Assembly (NCBI GenBank): GCA_963669175.1
Contig: OY769902.1
Location: 841,348-905,347, forward strand
From: a bacterium
GTDB lineage: Bacteria > Electryoneota > Electryoneia > Electryoneales > Electryoneaceae
DNA: 64,000 nucleotides
Reading direction: 5' to 3'
The translations under genes were made by a program, and so were the position numbers. Below the pieces are notes generated by a model. It saw only the letters and a list, made by a program, of their open reading frames with translations, was not told where the DNA came from and did no database searches. Positions 20,586 through 61,098 of this stretch are shown here, piece after piece. Every line of letters starts with the position of its first letter. The first letter of the stretch is position 1.

Positions 20586-20660
20586 TGGTAGCGCGTACGG
20601 GAATCGAACCCGTGTTTCCGGCGTGAGAGGCCAGCGTCCTGACCGCTGAACGAACGCGCC
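20586..20660 (-). tRNA. tRNA-Glu (anticodon CUC), 75 nt with encoded CCA
   Basis: Manually folded. Acceptor GGCGCGU/ACGCGCU, D-arm GUUC/GGAC, anticodon stem CUGGC/GCCGG with loop CUCUCAC, T-arm ACGGG-UUCGAUU-CCCGU. Confidence 0.85.
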
Positions 20661-20761
20661 ATAGTGGAGTCAAAAATACATGCTTGATGACAGTAAATCA
20701 ACCGCTTCGCTCTGGCGAGAGACTCTCTCTCCTGAGTTTGAAAGTTGGCAAGTTTGAAAGT

Positions 20762-21103
20762 TGAAAAGTTAGGCTGCTCACAAGAATTTGTACATACAAT
20801 CGACGAGCACGTTTCGTCAGGTCTTGACACGATACCTTTTTCTTGTTTTTTACCGCAATTGCAGACACCTGTCCGACTTTACGCCTGCAATTTTACATGA
20901 TAGTTCGTCGTCAGGCATCGTGTTATAACCTGACGACTGCGAGAATGCTGATATCGGTGGCAGGTCACAACGCGACAAAAACAGGGCGAGAGGCGGTTTC
21001 TGTATCATCGTTATTCAGGAAAACATTGCTAAAGCCGAAGACAGAATGTCGCGTCAAGACCTGCCACAACATTGCCCGGATGCACAAATTCTTGTGAGGA
21101 ACC
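20762..21103. repeat. MITE-A complete copy (342 bp, TIR CTCACAAGAATTTGT, 8-bp TSD AAAAGTTA)
   Basis: Imperfect ~50-bp TIRs. TSD at 20754-20761 and 21104-21111. Inserted inside an array of GAAAGTT octamers. Confidence 0.65.
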
Positions 21104-21400
21104 AAAAGTTAGAAAGTTCAAAAGTTACCTATCCTTATCGTCCTACTACCTGAAAAATTGTTACCTTCCCGACTTGCTGCCAGATATTGTTATTCTGCGA
21201 AACTTCTCTTCCATAACATTCCCCTGTTTTGGAATCAGAGAACATCACAGGCAAATCGGGCCATGCCTCACTGGAGTTGGAAAGTTACAAAGCTTGAAAG
21301 TTCTAAAGTTATTTGAATGATTGCATAGAATACGGTCATAAATCAGGTTTCAGACATGGCATAATGTCAGTAACCATTCACTCTTTTCATCATTCTTTCA

Positions 21401-45011: not shown

Positions 45012-46687
45012 CTACTCTTGAAAATAAAGCGTCATGATAGTATCCGACGAACGATTCATAGGTGATAGGAAAGAAGCATATGGAAAAAGGGGACAGTTTC
45101 CTTTCCCTGAAGCAAAGCCTTCCCGCTGTGAGCATGGACCGGGAAAGGTGGCTGTACCCTTTTTCTTGAGAGCAGGCAGGAATTACACGGAAAAGGGGAC
45201 AGTTTCCTTTTCCATGAATGTCTCAAGCGTATTCTGTATGAGCGCGAGGAAAAGGATCCCGTCCCCTTTTCCCGGCAATCTCTATTATGACGGAATAAAA
45301 CCGAGTTCCTATGTTAAACGACAGGCGCATCAAGTCGTGTTGGAACTGCTATCTTAGCAGTATTCCATTTTTCCAACACAAGGAGAAGCGCCATGTCGAA
45401 GAACCAAGTTATTGCAGCGGACCGTTCATTGTCTATAGGTCTGGATGTTGATTCGCAGACTTCTTTCGCCGTTGTGCTCGACACCCAGACTGGTGAAGTG
45501 CTCTTTGAGAATCGGATCAAGCATGACTCAGCCGCTTGGGAACGCTTCTTTGCCCGTTTTCCCAACTGCCGCATGTGGGCGTGTTATGAAGCGGGCCTCA
45601 CCGGCTTTGGCCTCTGTCGTTACCTGATCGGCCAAGGTGTTGACTGCCAGATCGCGCCGCCCAGCCAAGTTCCCAAAGGGGCGCAAGCGAAGCAGCAGAA
45701 GACCGATCATCTGGATGCCCTTACCTTGGCCCACATGTTCTGGACACCACCTCGTACCTGGGTACATGTCCCCACAGAACAGGAAGAGGCGGATCGTCAG
45801 TTGTCTCGCACCCGTGACCAGGTGATGAATGATCGCGTTCGGGTCAAAAACCGAATCAAGAGTCTGCTATTGTTTCACGGTTTACAGTCACCGTTTCCGC
45901 CGCAACGCTATTGGACAAAGGAATACCGGCGCTGGTTGCGAACGTGTGATTGTCTGGCTGCGACACGGATAGCCATTGATGTTGCTCTCGATGAGCTGGA
46001 GGCCATTGAACAGCAACTCAAGGTGATCACCAAAGCGATCAAGGCGATGAATGCGTCCGCAACGTATCGGGACCGTACCCAGCGCCTGTGCCAGGTGAAA
46101 GGCGTGGGCGAGCTGACCGTGAACGCCTTCGTGACCGAGATGTATCGTCCCGAACGCTTCGCATCCGGTAAGCAAGTCGGCGCACATCTTGGCTTGACGC
46201 CGTGTGAATGGTCAAGCGCCAACACACGCCATATGGGACACATTACCCACTGGGGACCGTCCCATCTACGAAAACTATTGGTCGAAGCTGCGTGGCGTTG
46301 GGTGCAAAAAGATCCGTATGCAAAGAAGAAATACGATGCGATCCATGCCGGGAAAACACGGAAAGTGGCGATCGTCGCCATGGCACGAAAACTAGCCGTG
46401 ATACTGTGGGCCATGCTGGTCAAAGAACAAGACTACAATCCTGCCTGCGTATAACCCCAGCACTGCTGGCAGGTAGGTAAAGCATAGATTGTGATTGAAT
46501 CGTCCGATGCCATTGGGAACACGCGACCCTGGTAGTTATTCTGTTGCTTGACAACGATTCGAGTTTAGGGCGCCGCTGTTCCGTGCGAACAAAAAACTTG
46601 TGCCACGAGCACGAATAGCAGAACGGCACATGGGACGATACAAAGGCTCTTTACACCCTTGACTGTTTACATAGCAGAACAGCTATA
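45012..46687 (+). mobile_element. IS110-family insertion sequence, copy 2 (1676 bp, with a 110-bp internal tandem duplication in the leader)
   Basis: Identical to copy 1 over ORF and ends. Extra leader segment 45100-45210 repeats the AAAGGGGACAGTTTCCTTTCC unit. Confidence 0.8.
45393..46454 (+). CDS. IS110 family transposase (identical to 3315-4376)
   Basis: 100% identical 353-aa product. Confidence 0.9.
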   Translation: MSKNQVIAADRSLSIGLDVDSQTSFAVVLDTQTGEVLFENRIKHDSAAWERFFARFPNCRMWACYEAGLTGFGLCRYLIGQGVDCQIAPPSQVPKGAQAKQQKTDHLDALTLAHMFWTPPRTWVHVPTEQEEADRQLSRTRDQVMNDRVRVKNRIKSLLLFHGLQSPFPPQRYWTKEYRRWLRTCDCLAATRIAIDVALDELEAIEQQLKVITKAIKAMNASATYRDRTQRLCQVKGVGELTVNAFVTEMYRPERFASGKQVGAHLGLTPCEWSSANTRHMGHITHWGPSHLRKLLVEAAWRWVQKDPYAKKKYDAIHAGKTRKVAIVAMARKLAVILWAMLVKEQDYNPACV

Positions 46688-52715: not shown

Positions 52716-53064
52716 CCGAAGTCTTCGGGGCCTGGTGCAATTCCAGACCGGCGGTGAGAGTCCGCGACTCCCGGGATAGCCTGTGAAAGAACAGCGGGTT
52801 AGAGGTCAGACAACATGAGCCTGCTACCCAGTTCTGAGGCGTTTCGGGACTGAACCGGTGAGATTCCGGTACCGACGGTGAAAGTCCGGATGGGAGAAGG
52901 CGGACCGGCGAAAGCCGGATACAAGCATGAGCGGGGGCGGCTGTATGCCGATCTCCCGAAACCACGTCCGCGTACGGATTAACGTCTGTATGGCCGGGTG
53001 TGCATGCGTTGCCATGACCCCTACGCCCCGACGGTTGTAAAACCGCAGGGGCTTTCTGTTTTTA
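52716..53064 (+). ncRNA. FMN riboswitch (RFN element) with downstream intrinsic terminator
   Basis: Aptamer 52718-52900 matches the RFN consensus: CUUCGGGGC...GGUGCAAUUCCAGACCGGCGGUGAGAGUCCGCGAC...GGUGAGAUUCCGGUACCGACGGUGAAAGUCCGGAUGGGAGAAGG. Terminator GCCCC...GGGGC + UUUCUGUUUUU at 53024-53062. Confidence 0.8.
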
Positions 53065-53154
53065 GCCCTTTAAGTTGGAAAGTTATAGATTAGAAAATTA
53101 TCAAGTTAATGCGTTATTGTGGTTCCGGAAAGTTTTACTGATTAGAAGGCAATT

Positions 53155-53357
53155 AGCCTGCTTCAGCAGGCTCCTCTTAGCACCCGGCTTTAGCCGGGTG
53201 GCTGGGGATAACAGAAGCTATGAGCGCGCTTTAGCGTGCTTCAGTGTCATAGAATCTATACAAATCCAGAAAGCACCCTGAAGGGCGCTCGAGTCCTTGT
53301 TGTCCTTGTTCCCCCGGCTAAAGCCGGGGGCTAAGAGGAGCAGGCTAAAGCCTGCTA
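53155..53357. repeat. MITE-C compact copy (about 200 bp) between riboswitch and ribD
   Basis: Same stacked hairpins as 6074-6240/7119-7158 (AGCCTGCTTCAGCAGGCT, AGCACCCGGCTTTAGCCGGGTG, GCGCGCTTTAGCGTGC, AGCACCCTGAAGGGCGCT ... CCCCGGCTAAAGCCGGGGG, AGCAGGCTAAAGCCTGCT). Confidence 0.6.
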
Positions 53358-53447
53358 ACAAAAATGAATATAAATTTTCGAAAGAGTGCAATCCGGGAAA
53401 ATCAGACGCTATACAAGACAATGTAAGTTCTTCATCAGAATGTTTTT

Positions 53448-53490
53448 ATCCTTGACATCCTGATCATCCTTTACATCCTGTAAATGGAAC
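53448..53490 (+). promoter_or_regulatory. conserved 40-bp TTGACATCCT..CATCCTGTAAAT motif, copy 2, 60 bp upstream of ribD
   Basis: Near-identical to 21401-21440. Candidate promoter for the rib operon downstream of the MITE. Confidence 0.3.
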
Positions 53491-53548
53491 AGATACAGGC
53501 AGTAAATGCAACAGATACAGGCAACGACAGCAAACAACATACAGGCTT

Positions 53549-54661
53549 ATGTCTACATTCAGCGAACAAGATCACAGCATGATGCGTCGGGCGTTACGGT
53601 TGGCCAGGCGTGGACGTAGCTGGGTTGCGCCGAACCCGATGGTCGGAGCGGTGGTGGTGCGTGATGGTGAAATTGTGGGCGAGGGGTATCACCAGCGGTT
53701 CGGCGGTCCTCACGCCGAAGTGCATGCCTTGGAAAATGCCGGGGAGCGGGCGAAAGGCGCTGACTTGTATGTCACCCTGGAGCCTTGCTGCCATTTCGGG
53801 AAGACGCCACCATGCTCCAACCTGGTGATTGAAAAAGGGATCAAACGTGTTTTCGCGGCCATTGTGGACCCGAATCCATTGGTCAACGGTCGCGGATTGG
53901 AGCAGCTACGTAGCGCCGGGCTGGAGGTTCATGTCGGTCTGGAAACGGAGCAGGCGCGTGCCCTGAACGAATTTTACCTGAAGAAAGCCGCCACCGGGAA
54001 GCCGTGGGTCACTCTGAAGCTGGCCCAGACATTGGATGGCCGCATCGCCACACGTACCGGGCACAGTCAGTGGATCACCGGTCCGAAAGCGCGTCAGATG
54101 GGCCATGCGCTGCGTGCCATGCACGACGCTATCCTGGTCGGCGCCGGGACAGTGCATGCGGACGATCCCACGCTCAATGTTCGTCACGTTCGCGGACGTA
54201 ATCCCATCCGTATCGTCCTGGACACCAAGTGCGGCTTGCAGGAAAACTGCACCCTGTTGAACTCACCGGACATCGCCCCTACCTGGATTATCGCGTCAGA
54301 CAGATGCAAGAATCTTCCCGACTGGGACACTCGTGATCACGTCAGCATCCTGCGTGTGCCGGAAGATGACGAGGGCACGATTGACCTGCATGAGCTGATG
54401 AGTATCCTGGGGCGGCGTGGGGTGAGTTCCATCCTGGTCGAAGGGGGACGTCACATCTGGACACGATTCCTCGAAGAAGGCCTGGTAGACAAAATCGAAG
54501 CCTTTATTGCGCCGATGATCATGGGCGAAGGACTGGAAGCGATTGGCGATCTGGGCGTATTGAAGATTCCGGATGCTGTGAAACTGGATGATTTCCGCTG
54601 GCGCAGGGTTGGAACGGATTTACATGTGGTGGCCAAGGTTCACCCGCATTGGAGGCCGTAA
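53549..54661 (+). CDS. ribD: bifunctional riboflavin biosynthesis deaminase/reductase RibD
   Basis: CMP/dCMP deaminase zinc motif HAEVHAL...PCCHFGKTPPC, then a RibD C-terminal reductase domain. Confidence 0.9.
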   Translation: MSTFSEQDHSMMRRALRLARRGRSWVAPNPMVGAVVVRDGEIVGEGYHQRFGGPHAEVHALENAGERAKGADLYVTLEPCCHFGKTPPCSNLVIEKGIKRVFAAIVDPNPLVNGRGLEQLRSAGLEVHVGLETEQARALNEFYLKKAATGKPWVTLKLAQTLDGRIATRTGHSQWITGPKARQMGHALRAMHDAILVGAGTVHADDPTLNVRHVRGRNPIRIVLDTKCGLQENCTLLNSPDIAPTWIIASDRCKNLPDWDTRDHVSILRVPEDDEGTIDLHELMSILGRRGVSSILVEGGRHIWTRFLEEGLVDKIEAFIAPMIMGEGLEAIGDLGVLKIPDAVKLDDFRWRRVGTDLHVVAKVHPHWRP

Positions 54662-55317
54662 TGTTTACCGGACTGGTGGAAGAAGTCGGCACAATTCGCA
54701 TGATGCGCCGCCGTGGGGACGGAGCTATCCTCACCATAGAAGCTCGCAGGGTGCTGGAAGATGTACAAAAGGGCGACAGCATCGCTATTGCCGGGGTTTG
54801 TCAGACTGTCGTGCATTTCCAGCCGGGCTGGTTCCAGGTGGAAGCGGTGAAGGAGACGCTTGAACGGACACGTTTTGCCGAGTGGAGCCGTGGGCAGAAG
54901 GTCAACCTGGAACGCGCCATGCGTCCCATCGACCGGCTGGGCGGACACCTGGTGCAGGGGCATGTAGACGGTATGGCGGAGGTAGCGGGCATCAAACGCC
55001 TGGAGAGTTCTCACCGCCTGACCCTCCGTCCGCTTAATGGTGACATGACCTATATCGTGGAAAAAGGTTCGATCTGCCTGGATGGGATCAGCCTTACGGT
55101 AGCGTCACTGACTGACAGCACATTTGATGTGGAAATTATTCCGCATACCTGGGAAGCTACCACGCTGCACCTGCTGAAGGGTGGCGACAAGATTCACCTG
55201 GAGTGGGATGTCATCGCCAAATATGTGTACAAGATGCTACATGCTTTCAAAAGTGGAACAGACAAGAAAGAATCCGGCGGCCTGACTGCGGAAAAGTTGA
55301 TGGAATATGGATTCTAA
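54661..55317 (+). CDS. ribE: riboflavin synthase alpha chain
   Basis: MFTGLVEEVGTI... two lumazine-binding repeats. Start overlaps the ribD stop (TAATG). Confidence 0.9.
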   Translation: MFTGLVEEVGTIRMMRRRGDGAILTIEARRVLEDVQKGDSIAIAGVCQTVVHFQPGWFQVEAVKETLERTRFAEWSRGQKVNLERAMRPIDRLGGHLVQGHVDGMAEVAGIKRLESSHRLTLRPLNGDMTYIVEKGSICLDGISLTVASLTDSTFDVEIIPHTWEATTLHLLKGGDKIHLEWDVIAKYVYKMLHAFKSGTDKKESGGLTAEKLMEYGF

Positions 55318-55385
55318 GTAAAGAAGGTAAAAAAAGTAAAGAAGGTGATAGAGTGTGACAGAATATTTTAAAGAGGGGTAATAGC

Positions 55386-55751
55386 ATGACTACGAAATAC
55401 AAGAGCTTTGAAGAGTTGGAAATATGGCAAAAGTGATGCAGGTTGGCAGCGGATATTTACAGGGAAACCAAAGAAGGTTCCTGGAAAAATGATTATTCAT
55501 TACGTGACCAAATCAGGAGAAGCGCAGTATCAATTCCATCCAATATTGCAGAAGGGTATGAACGAAACAGCAGAAAAGAGTTTATCCGTTTCTTGAAAAT
55601 AGCAAAAGCATCATGTGGAGAATTTCGAACACAATTATATATAGCAAAAGCGATAGGATATATGAATAAGGAGACTTTTGATAAGTTTCACGAATCATCA
55701 AGAAAAGTCAGCGCAATGATCCAATCTTTAATAAATAGTATCAGAGATTGA
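55386..55751 (+). pseudogene. four-helix-bundle protein (TIGR02436 / Avd-like / 23S rRNA intervening-sequence protein family) interrupted by in-frame TGA at codon 17
   Basis: MTTKYKSFEELEIWQK-TGA-CRLAADIYRE... TGA (55434-55436) replaces the Gly codon present in the intact paralog at 57735. Otherwise full-length. Flanked by inverted GTAAAGAAGGTAAAAAAAG-type repeats. Confidence 0.55.
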
Positions 55752-55866
55752 AGACTTGGATATTCAAGATGTTACGAACAACATTCAGAAGCATTAAGAG
55801 GTTTTTACTTTCTTTACCTTTTTTACGTTTTTTACTTTTTTCACTTATCCATAAGGAGAAACAGTC

Positions 55867-57069
55867 GTGATTTTTCATCCCATCGAAGAAGCGATAGAGG
55901 AGATCCGTGCAGGACGCATGATTATCCTGTGCGATGATGAAGACCGGGAGAACGAAGGTGATCTGGTAATGGCGGCCTCGAAGGTGACCCCGGAAGCGGT
56001 CAACTTCATGGCGAAAAACGGGCGTGGCATGATCTGTATGTCCCTGAGCGAGGAAAAGGCTCATCAGCTCGACCTGGCGCCCATGGTGGATACCACGCAT
56101 AATACCGCGTTGCACGGCACCAAGTTCACCATCACTATTGACGCTGCCGAAGGCACCACTACCGGTATTTCCGCCGCGGATCGTGCGATAACGATGCAGA
56201 AGGCTGCAGAAGCGGATGCCAAGCCGGAAGATTTCGGACGTCCGGGCCATGTTCACCCGATCATCGCTGCGCAAGGAGGAGTGTTGCGTCGGGCCGGGCA
56301 CACCGAAGGCACAGTCGATCTGGCGCGTTTGGCCGGATGCCCACCATTGGGTGTTCTGTGTGAAGTGATGAACGAAGACGGTACTATGGCGCGTGTTCCC
56401 GACCTGCACAAGCGAGCGCAGGAATGGGGCCTGAAGATGTTCACTATCCGTGATCTGATCGAGTATCGTCAGCGTACGGAAAAACTGATTGAACGTACCG
56501 TGACCGTCCCCCTGCCGACCTGGCATGGTGATTTTATGATGCACCATTACCACGAGGTAGCTTCGGGCAAGGAACATGTTGCGTTGACATTGGGCGAGTG
56601 GGAAGAGGATGAGCCGGTGCTGGTGCGTGTGCATAGTGAATGCCTGACCGGGGACACATTGCATTCCAAGCGCTGCGATTGTGGGCAGCAACGGGATCGC
56701 GCCCTGGAAATGATACAGGAAGAAGGCAAGGGTGTATTCCTGTACATGCGTCAGGAAGGACGTGGTATCGGCCTTGAAGCGAAGCTGAAAGCGTATGCCT
56801 TGCAGGACAAGGGACATGATACCGTGGAAGCCAACCTCTTGCTGGGATTCAAGCCAGATCTGCGTGACTACGGAATTGGCGCCCAGATCCTGCGTGATCT
56901 CGGGGTGCGCAAGATGAAGCTGATGACCAACAACCCGAAGAAAATCGTCGGCTTAAAGGGATACGGGCTGGAAGTAGTGGATCGTGCGCCGATCGAGATC
57001 GAGGCCAACGAGTACAATACCTACTACATGCAGACGAAAAAAGAAAAAATGGGGCATTTGTTGCACTAG
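55867..57069 (+). CDS. ribBA: bifunctional 3,4-dihydroxy-2-butanone-4-phosphate synthase / GTP cyclohydrolase II
   Basis: N-terminal DHBP synthase ([15 protein letters not shown]); C-terminal GTP cyclohydrolase II (CxxGxC...C zinc site, RQEGRGIGL). Confidence 0.9.
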
Positions 57070-57139
57070 AAGTGAAAAAAGTGAAAAAAGTGGGCAGTGA
57101 AAAAAGAGCTTGAGTGGAAGCACTCTCAACTCTGACAGA

Positions 57140-57396
57140 CTAGTGGACCATTGCACCTGATATGAGTTGTTCTGCTTGTTTTTGATGAGTCGATTTCAAG
57201 GCAGTTTCACGAAATCATAGTGGTTCTATTCTGAGTAAAACTAACGCAGAAATCGGCCATCAAAAACAAGCCCTAAGGGAGCGCGCGCTTTGCCCCATGA
57301 CTGCGTTGCTTTCCCTTGAAATAGCCCGCTATGTCTGTAGTCAAGCACCTTGTCCTGAGGTAAAGTGCGCAGCTCAGAAAACATCATAGCAGGTGC
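57140..57396. repeat. 257-bp element bounded by 17-bp inverted repeat AGTGGACCATTGCACCTG with nested inner palindromes
   Basis: Outer IR 57140-57157 / 57380-57396. Inner IR CTTGTTTTTGATG / CATCAAAAACAAG. Sits in the ribBA-ribH spacer next to GTGAAAAAAG repeats. Confidence 0.4.
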
Positions 57397-57734
57397 AATG
57401 GTCCACAAGCACGAAAACGGGAAACATGATAAAAGAAAACCAATAGAGAGTTAATGAAAACCAAGAATTATAAAGTGTTGGACATTTTGAGGTGAATATA
57501 AGCATTAGTGGTTGATTTTTGTGGCGTTGCTGGTAAGCCGGATTGGGTCAAAGGTTTTGTCTGGCGTGATTACCTGCATAAAAGCGCAGTATCCATTCAT
57601 TCGATTTTGGAAGCATAGAGTTTTCTGCCATGATTCAGTCGCTAATAATACATTTATCGAGAGAGAATTAGTAAAGCAGTTTCTTTTTTCACTTTTTTCA
57701 CTGTCAACTTTTTTCACTTTAGCAGGAGAACCGT

Positions 57735-58100
57735 ATGGCTACCAAGAAATTTGAAGAGTTGGATATCTGGAAGCGGGGATGCAGGTTGGCTGTTGATCTT
57801 TACGGCCTGACAGGAAAAGGGAATTGGGCAAAAGATTTTTCACTTCGAGACCAGGTCAGACGATGCGCAGTGTCTGTTCCGTCCAATGTTGCGGAAGGAT
57901 TTGAACGTGGTGGAGTGAACGAATTCCGTCGTTTTCTCCGTATCGCCAAGGGATCATGTGGCGAACTTCGTACCCAACTGTATATAGCACAGGCAATCGA
58001 CTATATTTCCAAACCTGATATGGATCCTATTGTTCAGGAAACACGTGAAATCAGCGCCATGATTCAATCGCTAATAACCCATTTATCGAAAGAGAGTTAG
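57735..58100 (+). CDS. four-helix-bundle protein (TIGR02436 / Avd-like family), intact
   Basis: 121 aa. MATKKFEELDIWKRGCRLAVDLY...SNVAEGFERG...FLRIAKGSCGELRTQLYIA. Flanked by a 105-bp direct repeat (57618-57722 = 58049-58153) that includes a 3' gene-end remnant upstream. Confidence 0.8.
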   Translation: MATKKFEELDIWKRGCRLAVDLYGLTGKGNWAKDFSLRDQVRRCAVSVPSNVAEGFERGGVNEFRRFLRIAKGSCGELRTQLYIAQAIDYISKPDMDPIVQETREISAMIQSLITHLSKES

Positions 58101-58163
58101 CAATACGGTTTCCTTTTTCACTTTTTTCACTGTCTACTTTTTTCACTCCAACAAGGGGTTATT

Positions 58164-58634
58164 GTGAAAACTATCGAAGGCATTCTGGACGGCAAGGGCA
58201 AGAAGTTTGGCATCGTTGCCAGCAGGTTTAACAGTTTTATCGTGGATCGGTTGATTGAAGGCGCAGTGGATGGCTTGAAACGTCATGGCGTGGAAGAGGA
58301 TGACATTATCCTGGCACGTTGTCCTGGCAGCTTCGAGATTCCTGGCGTGGCGAAGAAGATGGCCCGGAGCGGCAAAGTGGATGCCGTCATTGGGATTGGC
58401 AGCCTGATCCGTGGTGCAACAACCCATTACGATCACGTGGCCGCAGAAGTAACAAAAGGCCTTGCGACGCTTTCGTTTGAGGGTGACATTCCGGTAATTT
58501 ATGGGATTGTTACGGCAGAAAGCATTGAACAGGCCATTGAACGTGCGGGCACAAAAGCTGGCAACCGTGGCTTTGCTGCGGCCGAGAGCGCATTGGAAAT
58601 GGTCAATCTTTACGGGAACCTGTCGTCCCTTTAG
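58164..58634 (+). CDS. ribH: 6,7-dimethyl-8-ribityllumazine synthase
   Basis: [14 protein letters not shown]...IPGVAKKMA...GTKAGNRG signature. Confidence 0.9.
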
Positions 58635-58728: not shown

Positions 58729-61098
58729 ATGCGCGGCCGCACTATGACTCTGCCTCTGGGAGTCCTGGTATTAGCCTTATTTGCCGATGTGGCGTTTGGG
58801 GATACCTGGCGAACAATCACTGCCGGGTGGAAACCCAACCGAGTTGCCATTGCCGGTGGAAAAATCTGGGCGTGTTCGGAAGGTGGATTGTACGATGTCG
58901 CAGCGGATTTCTCCGACATTCGTCTCCTGAACAAGGATGACGGGCTCTATGCGAATGATGTCAATGTGGTGCGCGCGGAAGCGGACGAGTCCCGCATATG
59001 GATCGGGTATGATGATGCCGGAGTTGATCGTATTGATCCGGCCACAGGTGACATTGTTCAACGTATCCTTGATTTTGTCGAATCGAACGAAGTCTTCTCC
59101 ATCTATGATATTTTCCTGTCCGAAACAGAAGCTTACGTTGCAACAGATATCGGTGTAAGCAAGCTTATTCCTTCCGATTATGACGATCTCTGGGTCGTAA
59201 GCGAAACCTACCGAAACTTCGGAGTCGGGACAGATGCCTGGCCTCAGCCGGTCAAGGTGGAGTCTGTGTTTTCGGACGGGGAATGGTTGTTTGTCGGTGG
59301 TATAAACGGTATCGCGGTCGCGTCGCTGGAAGACAATCTGTTTGATCCCGGGGTATGGCAGACATTTGACTTTGAGAGTGACCTTCCCCATCGTAGTGAT
59401 GTGACAAACAATGTGAGCTGGTTTCGTCAGATGAACGGCGAAATCTATGCTGGATTGTACCTGTTTACTGTCGTGCGCTGGGATGGAGAAGAGTGGGATC
59501 AGGCCACTCCGAACTACAGATTCTATTTCGGTATGACGGACTCGCCTGACAGCACGATTTACTGTGGCGCCGGCAACGGTTTATATAAATGGAATCGTGA
59601 TGACAACACCTTTGACCTGCTGATCCCCGACAGCCTGACCCAAAAAGTCTTTGATCTGACCTGGGCTTTTGGCAATGTTGTGGGAGTTCTTGATACGGAC
59701 GCCAAAGATAAGGGTGGTGTATTCAGGTTTGATCCTGATACAGGCGAGTATATCGTAATTCACCCCAACACTCCTGGTGGGAACCAGGCTACCCAATTGC
59801 ACATCGATGAAAGCGGTACGGTTTGGATTACAGCGCGCTCTTCCAATCAGAACGGTATCTATGGGTTGACGGCGGAAGGGGTATGGGAATCGATCACACG
59901 TTTGGATCTGACTCAGGATGCGTTCAACTATACGTTCCTTGATATCGGGACAGACGATGCCGGTGGGGTCTGGATCGGCAGCCGTGGCGATGGTCTTGTT
60001 CACATCATGCCCACTGACACCGGTCTTGTTCCAACCTGGTTTAATGCGGACACCAGTACGGGGGCACGTTTGCAACCAATGTCCAATGATGGTTTTGTTC
60101 TGATCGGTGGTGTAGCACGTGAGCCGGGAAAAGGAATGTGGTTGGTAAACACCTATGCTGGCGATGAATTATCCGGTGTGCTTCGCAAGCCATTGATCTT
60201 TGTTCCTCTCGCCTGGTATACCGACCCGACCACAGAATGGCAGACATACAGCACGGTTGATGGTGTACCAACGATTGATATCAAGAGTGTAATACGTGAC
60301 CATTATGGACGTTTGTGGTTTGGTCCTCTTTCGGACGCTGACCAGTATTCCATGGTGATGATGAACCCGGCCGGAACACCCATGAATCCGGATGATGATT
60401 CCTACATGACATTTGGCACCGGGGATGTCGGATTCACCATGGTCAACGATATGGTGCTGGATGATGAAGGGTTCCTGTGGGTTGGTGCGCCGGATGGATT
60501 GTACTACATCGACACGAACCATGACGATAGTTTTATCGTTGGATCTGTCACTGGTGCGCTGGGAGAGGAAATCACTGCTGTAGCCCTGGACCCGATGGGG
60601 CACATCTGGTGCGGTACCCACAACGGCGTGTCGGTATTTAATCCGGCACGGATGAGCTGGGTGAATCACTATACGGTTGCCAGTGGCCGCTATCCGAGTC
60701 GATTGGTTGACGATGATATCACCTGCATGGAATTCAACGGAGAAACCGGGGAAGCCTGGATCGGGACCAACATCGGCGTTTCCGTGTTGACGACACCATA
60801 CCGGAATTTCGGAGATGAACTGGGTGAGATTGATGTGCGTCCCCAACCTTTCCTGCTAGGTAATGATGGCGTATCCCTCCAGTTTATGGGGGAAAGCCTG
60901 GTCAACGGTGCAACGATAAAGATTTTCACTCCTTCAGGCAGACTGGTGCGTGAACTTAGCTTCAGCGAAGCCTCTTCAGAGGGGTGGGATGGACGCAACA
61001 AGGAAGGTGAACTGGTTTCCAGCGGAGTCTACCTGTTGCTGGTGACAGACCCGGAAGGACATTCCAAAGTTGGGAAAGCGGCTGTTGTGCGTAAATAA
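58729..61098 (+). CDS. secreted beta-propeller repeat protein (two-component-regulator propeller-like) with C-terminal sorting/Ig-like domain
   Basis: Signal peptide. Repeated W.G...GL... propeller units. C-terminal ...GVYLLLVTDPEGHSKVGKAAVVRK resembles T9SS CTD/FlgD-Ig. Confidence 0.6.
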   Translation: MRGRTMTLPLGVLVLALFADVAFGDTWRTITAGWKPNRVAIAGGKIWACSEGGLYDVAADFSDIRLLNKDDGLYANDVNVVRAEADESRIWIGYDDAGVDRIDPATGDIVQRILDFVESNEVFSIYDIFLSETEAYVATDIGVSKLIPSDYDDLWVVSETYRNFGVGTDAWPQPVKVESVFSDGEWLFVGGINGIAVASLEDNLFDPGVWQTFDFESDLPHRSDVTNNVSWFRQMNGEIYAGLYLFTVVRWDGEEWDQATPNYRFYFGMTDSPDSTIYCGAGNGLYKWNRDDNTFDLLIPDSLTQKVFDLTWAFGNVVGVLDTDAKDKGGVFRFDPDTGEYIVIHPNTPGGNQATQLHIDESGTVWITARSSNQNGIYGLTAEGVWESITRLDLTQDAFNYTFLDIGTDDAGGVWIGSRGDGLVHIMPTDTGLVPTWFNADTSTGARLQPMSNDGFVLIGGVAREPGKGMWLVNTYAGDELSGVLRKPLIFVPLAWYTDPTTEWQTYSTVDGVPTIDIKSVIRDHYGRLWFGPLSDADQYSMVMMNPAGTPMNPDDDSYMTFGTGDVGFTMVNDMVLDDEGFLWVGAPDGLYYIDTNHDDSFIVGSVTGALGEEITAVALDPMGHIWCGTHNGVSVFNPARMSWVNHYTVASGRYPSRLVDDDITCMEFNGETGEAWIGTNIGVSVLTTPYRNFGDELGEIDVRPQPFLLGNDGVSLQFMGESLVNGATIKIFTPSGRLVRELSFSEASSEGWDGRNKEGELVSSGVYLLLVTDPEGHSKVGKAAVVRK

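Follow-up and report, generated by a model that had tools for sequence, protein, structure and literature searches.

Four-helix-bundle genes between inverted repeat arms in a riboflavin operon: a candidate intervening-sequence-type element of protein-coding operons

Inserts in two spacers of a riboflavin operon

We analysed a 64,000-nucleotide (nt) stretch of bacterial contig OY769902.1 (assembly GCA_963669175.1, positions 841,348 to 905,347), the whole of which is called the window below. It contains a riboflavin (rib) operon with the gene order ribD-ribE-ribBA-ribH, in two spacers of which lie genes for four-helix-bundle (4HB) proteins, enclosed by arms of short tandem repeats that stand in opposite orientation on the two sides; a gene with its two arms is referred to here as a cassette. 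The operon is headed by a flavin mononucleotide (FMN) riboswitch aptamer (52717..52905, plus strand; RF00050 in Rfam, 94.9 bits where the gathering score is 66.2) and comprises ribD (53549-54661, assigned by Pfam) and, on the plus strand, the riboflavin synthase gene ribE (54649..55317; PF00677, E 2.7e-47), ribBA (55867..57069; PF00926 and PF00925) and the lumazine synthase gene ribH (58164..58634; PF00885). The ribE-ribBA spacer holds one 4HB gene and the ribBA-ribH spacer an intact and a decayed one, with ribBA between the two cassettes and ribH 3′ of the second insert.

As the first-pass annotation of this DNA had proposed, the two genes belong to the PF05635 (23S rRNA-intervening sequence protein) / TIGR02436 (four helix bundle protein) family. 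Copy 1 (55386..55751, plus strand, 121 codons), intact save for a premature TGA, scores 133 bits with PF05635, the TGA being read as glycine, and 131 bits with TIGR02436; copy 2 (57735..58100, plus strand), an intact gene for a basic protein of 121 residues (pI 8.9), scores 116 and 114 bits. The cut-offs are 33.8 and 24 bits respectively. The 4HB copies in the window are 60% identical, and the median pI of 4HB proteins is likewise 8.9. The monomer of copy 2 was modelled with a pLDDT of 95.4 as an up-and-down bundle of four long helices, for which the closest solved structure is 2GSC (XCC0516; TM-score 0.88-0.92); the corresponding scores are 0.77-0.87 for 2RLD (BT_0352) and 0.76-0.86, at 16% identity, for 4DWL, the protein Avd of diversity-generating retroelements (DGRs).

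The TGA of copy 1 lies in frame at 55434-55436, at codon 17, and does fall where a glycine had been noted in the sister copy: this is Gly15 of the family, kept in at least 90% of 41 homologues. Since TGA is an ordinary stop in the window, where it terminates 13 of 42 long open reading frames (ORFs), we read this codon as a premature stop that probably arose by a plain GGA to TGA change, and such a stop would fit with the loss of the ORF from the corresponding cassette in the closest relative, described below. An alternative genetic code or selenocysteine was rejected, given these 13 terminations, the 86% of the window that is coding under table 11 and the lack of any hairpin seen 3′ of the codon.

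The A-rich repeats that had been described around the genes are present. They are not simple boundary repeats, however, but inverted arms that close a stem, with forward units upstream (GTAAAGAAG / GTGAAAAAA) and reverse-complement units downstream (pairs I2-I5, 84-93% complementary). Cassette 1 spans 532 nt (55316-55847) and, as each cassette, is laid out as left arm, about 40 nt, 4HB ORF, about 50 nt and right arm. Its left arm (55316..55346, plus strand) consists of about 3.4 tandem 9-nt units (GTAAAGAAG / GTAAAAAAA; inverted pairs I2 and I3) and its right arm (55804..55847, plus strand) of five TTTTTACTT units, the reverse complement of the left arm, with a complementarity of 84-87%. The insert between ribBA and ribH opens with a left arm of GTGAAAAAA units (57070..57106, plus strand; exact pattern match, pairs I4, I5 and I8) and has two right arms on the same strand, a proximal one of CTTTTTTCAC units (57683..57720; I4 93% and I8 100% complementary) and a distal one (58112..58148; I5, 27 nt, 93%), whose two mismatches to the left arm would both be G-U pairs in RNA. 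Tandem Repeats Finder gave a period of 9 at all five window arms. The 19-mer GTGAAAAAAGTGAAAAAAG, with up to 3 mismatches allowed, occurs four times in the 64 kb, each time at an arm, where 0.03 occurrences are expected, and a count of 4 was reached in none of 100 shuffles.

The arms fit precisely into the space from the upstream stop codon to the ribosome-binding site downstream. The left arms start on or next to the stop codon, with that of ribE abutting the left arm of cassette 1 and the second left arm running from the base right after the ribBA stop; on the other side, 6 nt separate the end of the right arm of cassette 1 from the ribBA Shine-Dalgarno sequence, and 15 nt lie between the end of the distal right arm and the GTG start codon of ribH. 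In both minimum free energy and centroid RNA folds the two arms of cassette 1 pair into a terminal stem, and the left arm and the distal right arm close the whole ribBA-ribH spacer, the predicted stem closing each insert being about 30 bp long. Each stem can be extended over the stop codon into the last codons of the upstream gene, ribE in cassette 1 (55306-55312 / 55847-55853, TATGGAT/ATCCATA) and ribBA in the second insert (57058-57064 / 58151-58157, TTTGTTG/CAACAAG). As a general feature, an extension of 6-7 bp into the upstream gene was dropped, being no more common than in the control across 124 loci. Between the right arm of cassette 1 (55825-55846) and the left arm that opens the second insert (57070-57091) complementarity is 91%, and an alternative pairing of these two could hold ribBA within a loop of 1.2 kb.

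The second spacer has a composite order of left arm, 270-nt hairpin, pseudogene, right arm, intact gene and right arm. The pseudogene (57454..57671, plus strand; tblastn, direct repeats D3 and D5) had been noted as a third remnant at 57600-57665, and it is larger than that: besides residues 105-121 (57618-57668) it retains residues 1-50 (57454-57603, with two stops), the part between residues 50 and 105 having been deleted. The direct repeat said to flank copy 2 is likewise present and measures 92 nt at 88% identity (57627-57718 against 58056-58147), not 105 bp. Since this repeat spans the gene 3′ end and the right arm, it shows, as far as can be read from the sequence, that gene and right arm were duplicated in tandem, the proximal right arm having been copied along with the gene end, and that the older copy then decayed and took in an unrelated hairpin. 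This bears out the notion of a duplicating unit. The hairpin (57140..57409, no strand assigned; I1 and I18, and predicted fold) has 35-nt outer arms at 86% and an inner perfect stem of 14 bp, occurs once in the window and is missing from the orthologous spacer of the closest relative. Neither the arms nor this inner hairpin matched an Rfam family, even at E up to 1.

That relative, locus L081 (GCA_964648415.1), has the nearest rib operon, with a RibBA 91% identical to ours. It carries one cassette, in the ribBA-ribH spacer, in the order ribBA, four GTGGAAAAC units, 4HB gene, complementary arm and ribH; the 4HB protein is 71% identical to copy 2, and the repeat unit is altered at two positions in every copy on both sides. 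At the position of cassette 1 no 4HB ORF was detectable, and 5′ of ribBA only a right-arm remnant, TTTCTTTTTTCACTTTTTCC, is found, preceded by REP-like (repetitive extragenic palindrome-like) hairpins (GTCATTCCTGCGAAAGCAGGAATC and variants; L081 1-370). Three operons with a 76% identical RibBA (loci in L082-L085) have a 4HB gene in neither spacer, their ribE-ribBA spacers being 57-67 nt and their ribBA-ribH spacers 10 nt and 272 nt long. A fixed, ancient two-gene arrangement, the case that had been named as telling against a cassette, was thus not observed in related rib operons. The absence of 4HB genes from the 76% operons, together with the single changed-arm cassette of L081, implies that the window cassettes are lineage-specific inserts and not rib genes, as had been supposed.

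Between the window and L081 the proportion of non-synonymous differences (pN) is 0.25 for the 4HB protein, synonymous sites being saturated, and 0.05 for RibBA, which is consistent with a constrained protein whose non-synonymous sites nevertheless change about five times as fast as those of RibBA. It could still be argued that the 4HB protein really has an accessory or regulatory part in riboflavin synthesis and belongs in the operon, given that its genes are co-oriented and tightly packed with the rib genes and that L081 has kept one cassette. However, a component of the pathway would hardly be missing from operons at 76% RibBA identity, have its closest homologues in pta, bat, metK-ahcY, suf, lexA, nrd and cas operons, exist here as one copy with a nonsense codon and another as a pseudogene, and diverge at this rate, and we give the idea almost no credence.

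Inverted arms across the 4HB family

A profile of the 41 homologues retrieved 80 loci of many phyla from contigs representing one genome per species, and 80 metagenome loci served as an independent replication set. With complementarity defined as a score of at least 15 between flanks of 250 nt on each side, the flanking arms were complementary in 63 of 76 genome loci, as against 3 of 76 for non-cognate flanks, 0 of 76 for shuffles and 14 of 206 for other genes of those loci. The metagenome loci gave 58 of 67 against 5 of 67 for non-cognate flanks. Heptamer arms were also found in 8 of 9 distant members (34-39% identity) from annotated cyanobacterial and Riemerella (Bacteroidota) records. These comparisons, made on sequence, show that the inverted-arm build is common to most of the sampled 4HB family members in many phyla. 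The family itself comprises 30,859 clusters at 50% identity (E up to 1e-3).

The dimensions of the cassettes agree between the two sets. The unit period is 7 nt in 46 of 68 genome loci, 8 nt in 11 and 9 nt in 9, and 7 nt in 36 of 58 metagenome loci; in the genome loci arms have a median of 4.6 units and 35 nt, and the median cassette length is 518 nt (range 413-736) for the genome loci and 514 nt for the metagenome loci. In both sets the median distance is 2 nt from the upstream stop codon to the start of the left arm that follows it, and 10 nt from the end of the right arm to the next start codon, and in 45 of 57 genome loci the left arm lies within -10 to +20 nt of the stop. The 4HB gene shares its orientation with both neighbours in 60 of 72 loci, compared with 66% of control gene triplets (about 3 SD). 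The left-arm unit has a consensus of roughly R-G-T-Y-Y-M-A, and G exceeds C in the left arms of 56 loci, with the reverse in 8. Away from 4HB genes we found 14 inverted array pairs without an ORF, with loops of 9-84 nt. The 80 related loci from genomes contain no 23S motifs that could be found.

Such arrays could in principle be ordinary slippage-prone simple repeats that gather in spacers, their link to 4HB genes being functionally meaningless. Some genomes are indeed rich in heptamer arrays, to which no role has been assigned (PMC4692102, PMC4679880), and the unit number is unstable: of two orthologous bat-operon cassettes with right arms of about 4 units each, one has about 12 GTGTGAAA units in its left arm (L090, 227-315) and the other 4 (L088, 2934-2970). 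Simple repeats would not, however, be expected to reach a 13-fold higher density close to 4HB genes (3.67 per kb within 250 nt) than in the rest of those loci (0.27 per kb), to match the other arm of their own cassette and not those of other cassettes, or to keep a fixed orientation relative to the gene. We therefore regard this explanation as very improbable.

The sites are varied. The 105 genes flanking the cassettes match 128 Pfam families, mostly of housekeeping function (metK, sufB/D, ahcY, lexA, thiolase, nrd, ispF), and the families matched most often include no reverse transcriptase, integrase or transposase. The closest homologues of copy 2 (64-66% identical) lie upstream of pta and within the bat operon, so that relatives do occur at unrelated sites elsewhere. 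Cassettes with heptamer arms are also found between cas6 and cas4 of type I-D CRISPR-Cas loci from two genera of cyanobacteria (L179, Anabaena sp. 90 pANA02; L180, Pseudanabaena galeata pPg_01). On Nostoc edaphicum pNe_5 (L176, 1115-1603) a GGGAGTA-armed cassette lies between two ribonucleotide reductase genes in the opposite orientation, a rare inverted case. On pCC7120gamma of Nostoc PCC 7120 (L094, 1900-2420) the 4HB gene has mutually non-complementary arrays, ACTTCAA upstream and CTTCTGC downstream, and is flanked by transposase genes; this may be a rearranged cassette. Phage or plasmid carriage was rejected as a vehicle: no 4HB relatives were found in phage records or viral contigs, and among 72,556 plasmids only 30 gave a match, most of them large replicons of cyanobacteria.

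Orthologous cassettes of other lineages diverge at the nucleotide rate of their flanks in ten orthologous pairs, implying that inheritance is mostly vertical. Recent horizontal replacement of cassettes was rejected, the identity profiles of the same ten pairs showing no jump at the arm borders. On the other hand, cassettes that are 73-80% identical and have the same unit occur at non-homologous sites, implying that the whole unit relocates over long times. Movement of the cassettes is thus slow, on an evolutionary time scale. No near-identical copies were seen at different sites, and no target-site duplication was seen, including at the window arm borders, where there is no direct duplication. 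The suggestion that the unit is mobile is therefore weakly supported, and holds only through this long-term relocation; the lack of a transposase or integrase and of near-identical copies, and the flank-rate divergence, speak against anything more.

Two cassettes with different units recur in one locus (L001, L045), and cassettes of a single genome can have quite different arm units (L002 against L007). Moreover, the whole unit sequence can be swapped between orthologous cassettes with complementarity kept, as seen for L001 against L003 and for the window against L081. Such swaps argue that the constraint is on pairing and not on one recognition sequence. At the level of sequence, orthologues show arms that co-vary, and the polarity of the arms is fixed.

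Elsewhere in the window an Rfam scan found one tRNA besides the FMN riboswitch, and no rRNA. Three arrays of 8-nt AAGTTnnA units, of the cassette left-arm type and in direct orientation (20735-20771, 21101-21127 and 21275-21311), lie between a minus-strand tRNA (20589-20660) and a minus-strand ORF, with no 4HB gene there; the first two flank a hairpin-rich segment (20772-21100). Within the rib operon, about 480 nt (53065-53548) separate ribD from a terminator-like stem that can be read in the sequence after the FMN riboswitch (about 53040-53065). This segment contains an inverted repeat with 61-nt arms at 79%, made of small hairpins (53153-53213 / 53298-53358), and 22-nt tandem repeats (53472-53546), both 5′ of ribD, and to judge by its sequence it looks like a third structured insert in the operon. 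A gene for an IS110-family transposase (45393-46454; PF01548 and PF02371) precedes the rib operon by about 9 kb, and no tie to the cassettes was found. The gene following ribH, here (58729-61098) as in L081 and L084, encodes a PorZ-like beta-propeller protein, which hints at a member of the Fibrobacteres-Chlorobi-Bacteroidetes group that has type IX secretion; the source organism has no close relatives in the protein collection searched. There was no PADLOC match, and membership of a defence system is accordingly unsupported.

RNA pairing or DNA arrays

Collectively our data are best accounted for by an intervening-sequence (IVS) type of element that resides in mRNA operons, carries the 4HB gene as cargo and acts via RNA, a reading to which we assign a probability of roughly 0.55. 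The cassettes appear to be a new form of IVS-type element, one found in protein-coding operons, and this seems to be how a very large protein family commonly occurs. Under this model cassettes would have inserted into two intercistronic rib spacers in an ancestor of the lineage. Having no promoter of its own, a cassette would be transcribed with its operon; promoter-like and terminator-like sites show no excess, which points weakly in this direction. The arms would then pair in the polycistronic RNA to form a duplex of about 30 bp, looping out the cassette and keeping the stop codon and the ribosome-binding site of the neighbouring cistrons close together. By analogy with the ORF-carrying 23S rRNA IVS of Coxiella, where cleavage was demonstrated by experiment, RNase III may cut this duplex. 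The basic 4HB protein, presumably a pentamer by homology to 2GSC and Avd, for which the pentamer is known from crystal structures (2GSC and 4DWL), probably binds nucleic acid and possibly its own arms.

Several observations weigh against this model. The tests made do not separate pairing in RNA from a function of the arms at the DNA level, and RNase III cutting is extrapolated from rRNA elements and from no mRNA cassette. Left arms have AGT over ACT at 168:8, and GT exceeds AC in 59 loci against 5; taken with the conserved unit start, this AGT excess suggests a partner that reads sequence, beyond pairing alone. On the sense strand, arm mismatches show no surplus of G-U, with 98 cases, over A-C, with 128 (isolated mismatches, 23 and 31), a comparison confounded in part by purine variation between units. 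Similar arrays occur singly or as direct repeats, where no stem is possible, as at 20735-21311 of the window and in TAACTGA arrays. The promoter scan covered sigma-70 sites, with promoters of other types outside it, and the gene calls in the related loci are crude longest-ORF calls.

Much of this would suit arms that act as DNA or protein-binding arrays, either iteron-like sites, perhaps for the 4HB pentamer, or the terminal inverted repeats of a foldback element, the inverted layout then serving recombination, transposition or DNA looping in place of RNA pairing. The R-G-T-T start of the unit and the strong strand asymmetry are conserved across phyla, the arms have no G-U wobble bias, and solitary and direct arrays exist. 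The median of 4.6 units per arm, mostly four in Xanthomonas, stands beside a protein that is pentameric in homologous crystals; same-unit cassettes occur at non-homologous sites, and the ORF-less inverted array pairs recall MITEs (miniature transposable elements of the inverted-repeat type) beside full transposons. Yet no transposase, integrase or reverse transcriptase stands out among the flanking genes, near-identical copies and target-site duplications were not seen, orthologues diverge at the flank rate, cassettes of one genome or locus carry different units, and orthologues exchange the unit while staying complementary. On balance we hold a DNA-level role to be unlikely, though it deserves serious attention, and favour the RNA-acting IVS-type element.

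Comparison with known systems

The cassettes resemble MITEs and foldback transposons in having inverted ends of short tandem units and ORF-less derivatives beside ORF-carrying ones, and differ from them in the lack of a transposase, a target-site duplication and bursts of identical copies, and in arms that differ between copies within one genome. With integron cassettes they share promoterless small ORFs, co-directional insertion and the possibility of tandem arrangement; attC, however, is a single imperfect palindrome 3′ of the ORF and requires an integrase, whereas here there are arms on both sides and no integrase was found near the cassettes.

A further comparison is with DGRs, near which PF05635 is the commonest accessory family (PMC10053308). 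Avd is an RNA-binding pentamer that binds an RNA stem-loop, and within the DGR RNA the template is enclosed by the pairing of two distal segments, one upstream and one downstream of it (bioRxiv 10.1101/2023.10.23.563531). The 4HB proteins are like Avd (PDB 4DWL, 8UB7) in fold and basic charge, and the flanking duplex of the DGR RNA is comparable to the arms; these, however, enclose the 4HB gene itself and not a template, and no reverse transcriptase is present. One could suppose from the likeness that the 4HB genes are avd genes of an orphan or decayed DGR that persisted once its reverse transcriptase and template/variable repeats had gone. The first-pass annotation had argued against a DGR, and rightly so, since no reverse-transcriptase domain is found in the operon or within about 10 kb of it (ORFs from 41.4 to 63 kb) and none is among the most frequently matched neighbour families at related loci. 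There is no template/variable repeat pair either: within 55200-58300, long direct repeats are confined to the paralogous genes and to the duplicated 92-nt stretch of gene end and arm, a pair explained by the duplication. The closest solved relatives, 2GSC and 2RLD, are not from DGRs, and relatives are lacking in phage records and viral contigs. The orphan-DGR explanation is largely refuted and, to our minds, scarcely plausible.

Arrays in intergenic DNA whose units of 7 (6-9) nt follow one another head to tail, usually about four to an array, a description that the five window arms with their period of 9 also fit, are known as GGGAATC arrays of Xanthomonas, as cyanobacterial short tandemly repeated repetitive (STRR) sequences and as TAACTGA arrays of Beggiatoaceae, cyanobacteria and Bacteroidetes (PMC4679880). 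The Xanthomonas arrays mostly have four units and lie between co-oriented genes near the 3′ end of the upstream gene, with 70-75 convergent GGGAATC pairs per genome, 90% of them syntenic between species (PMC4692102). One four-unit array of X. campestris (622956-622983) begins 6 nt after accB and overlaps the annotated start of XCC0516, the gene of structure 2GSC (PMC4692102 supplement), a protein on which those authors did not comment. Most such arrays differ from the cassette arms in being ORF-less or direct, and the papers describing them discuss G-quadruplexes or translational control and not 4HB or S23 proteins. The link between heptamer arrays and 4HB genes is made in the present analysis: we found no paper that connects 4HB genes with inverted heptamer arrays or with IVS-type elements in mRNA operons, within an incomplete coverage of the literature that leaves room for a prior description.

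From this link a wider proposal can be drawn, which we offer tentatively and consider, as a whole, somewhat doubtful. The 4HB gene with inverted heptad arrays would represent one very large, unnamed class of intervening elements in transcribed operon spacers, of which the 23S IVS, the GGGAATC arrays that form convergent pairs in Xanthomonas and perhaps some of the STRR sequences are special or ORF-less cases, and the pentamer would be a trans-acting reader of arrays of about 4-5 units per arm that maintains or spreads them. Should the rRNA IVS be just the form, resident in rRNA, of a cassette whose usual place is in mRNA operons, the question of its origin would become testable in tractable hosts, a huge family of hypothetical proteins would gain a defining genomic signature, and there would be an annotation rule for inserts that split operons (rib, acc, suf, metK-ahcY) and cas loci. 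The partnership of Avd with RNA in DGRs might then have its evolutionary root here. Origin and function of the rRNA IVS were still called unclear in 2016, over 25 years on from the discovery (PMC4990558), and the heptamer arrays of Xanthomonas, cyanobacteria and Beggiatoaceae are so far likewise without explanation.

The closest comparison is indeed with the rRNA IVS of Coxiella burnetii and Leptospira. In Coxiella this is a 428-nt element in 23S rRNA that carries an S23p ORF, now decaying, and has a 28-bp terminal stem that RNase III cuts mid-stem, with a 5′ arm of tandem GACAGAT heptamers in two or three copies, depending on the strain (PMC4990558). The two kinds of element differ in site, the rRNA IVS lying at the tip of 23S helix 9, 25 or 45 and the cassettes in spacers of protein-coding operons; in the unit, a heptamer there and 9 nt in the window; and in excision by RNase III, which is known for the rRNA elements and would apply to the mRNA cassettes by analogy. 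They have in common the protein family, PF05635 being named after the IVS protein, and the size, 428 nt in Coxiella within an IVS range of about 100-760 nt as compared with 532 nt for cassette 1 and a family median of about 515 nt. They also share a 5′ arm of short tandem units whose copy number varies, terminal inverted repeats that pair into a stem of about 28-35 bp, a closing stem being the defining feature of an IVS and the one predicted here, an optional S23p ORF in the loop that is prone to decay, and a sporadic distribution followed by vertical inheritance (PMC4990558).

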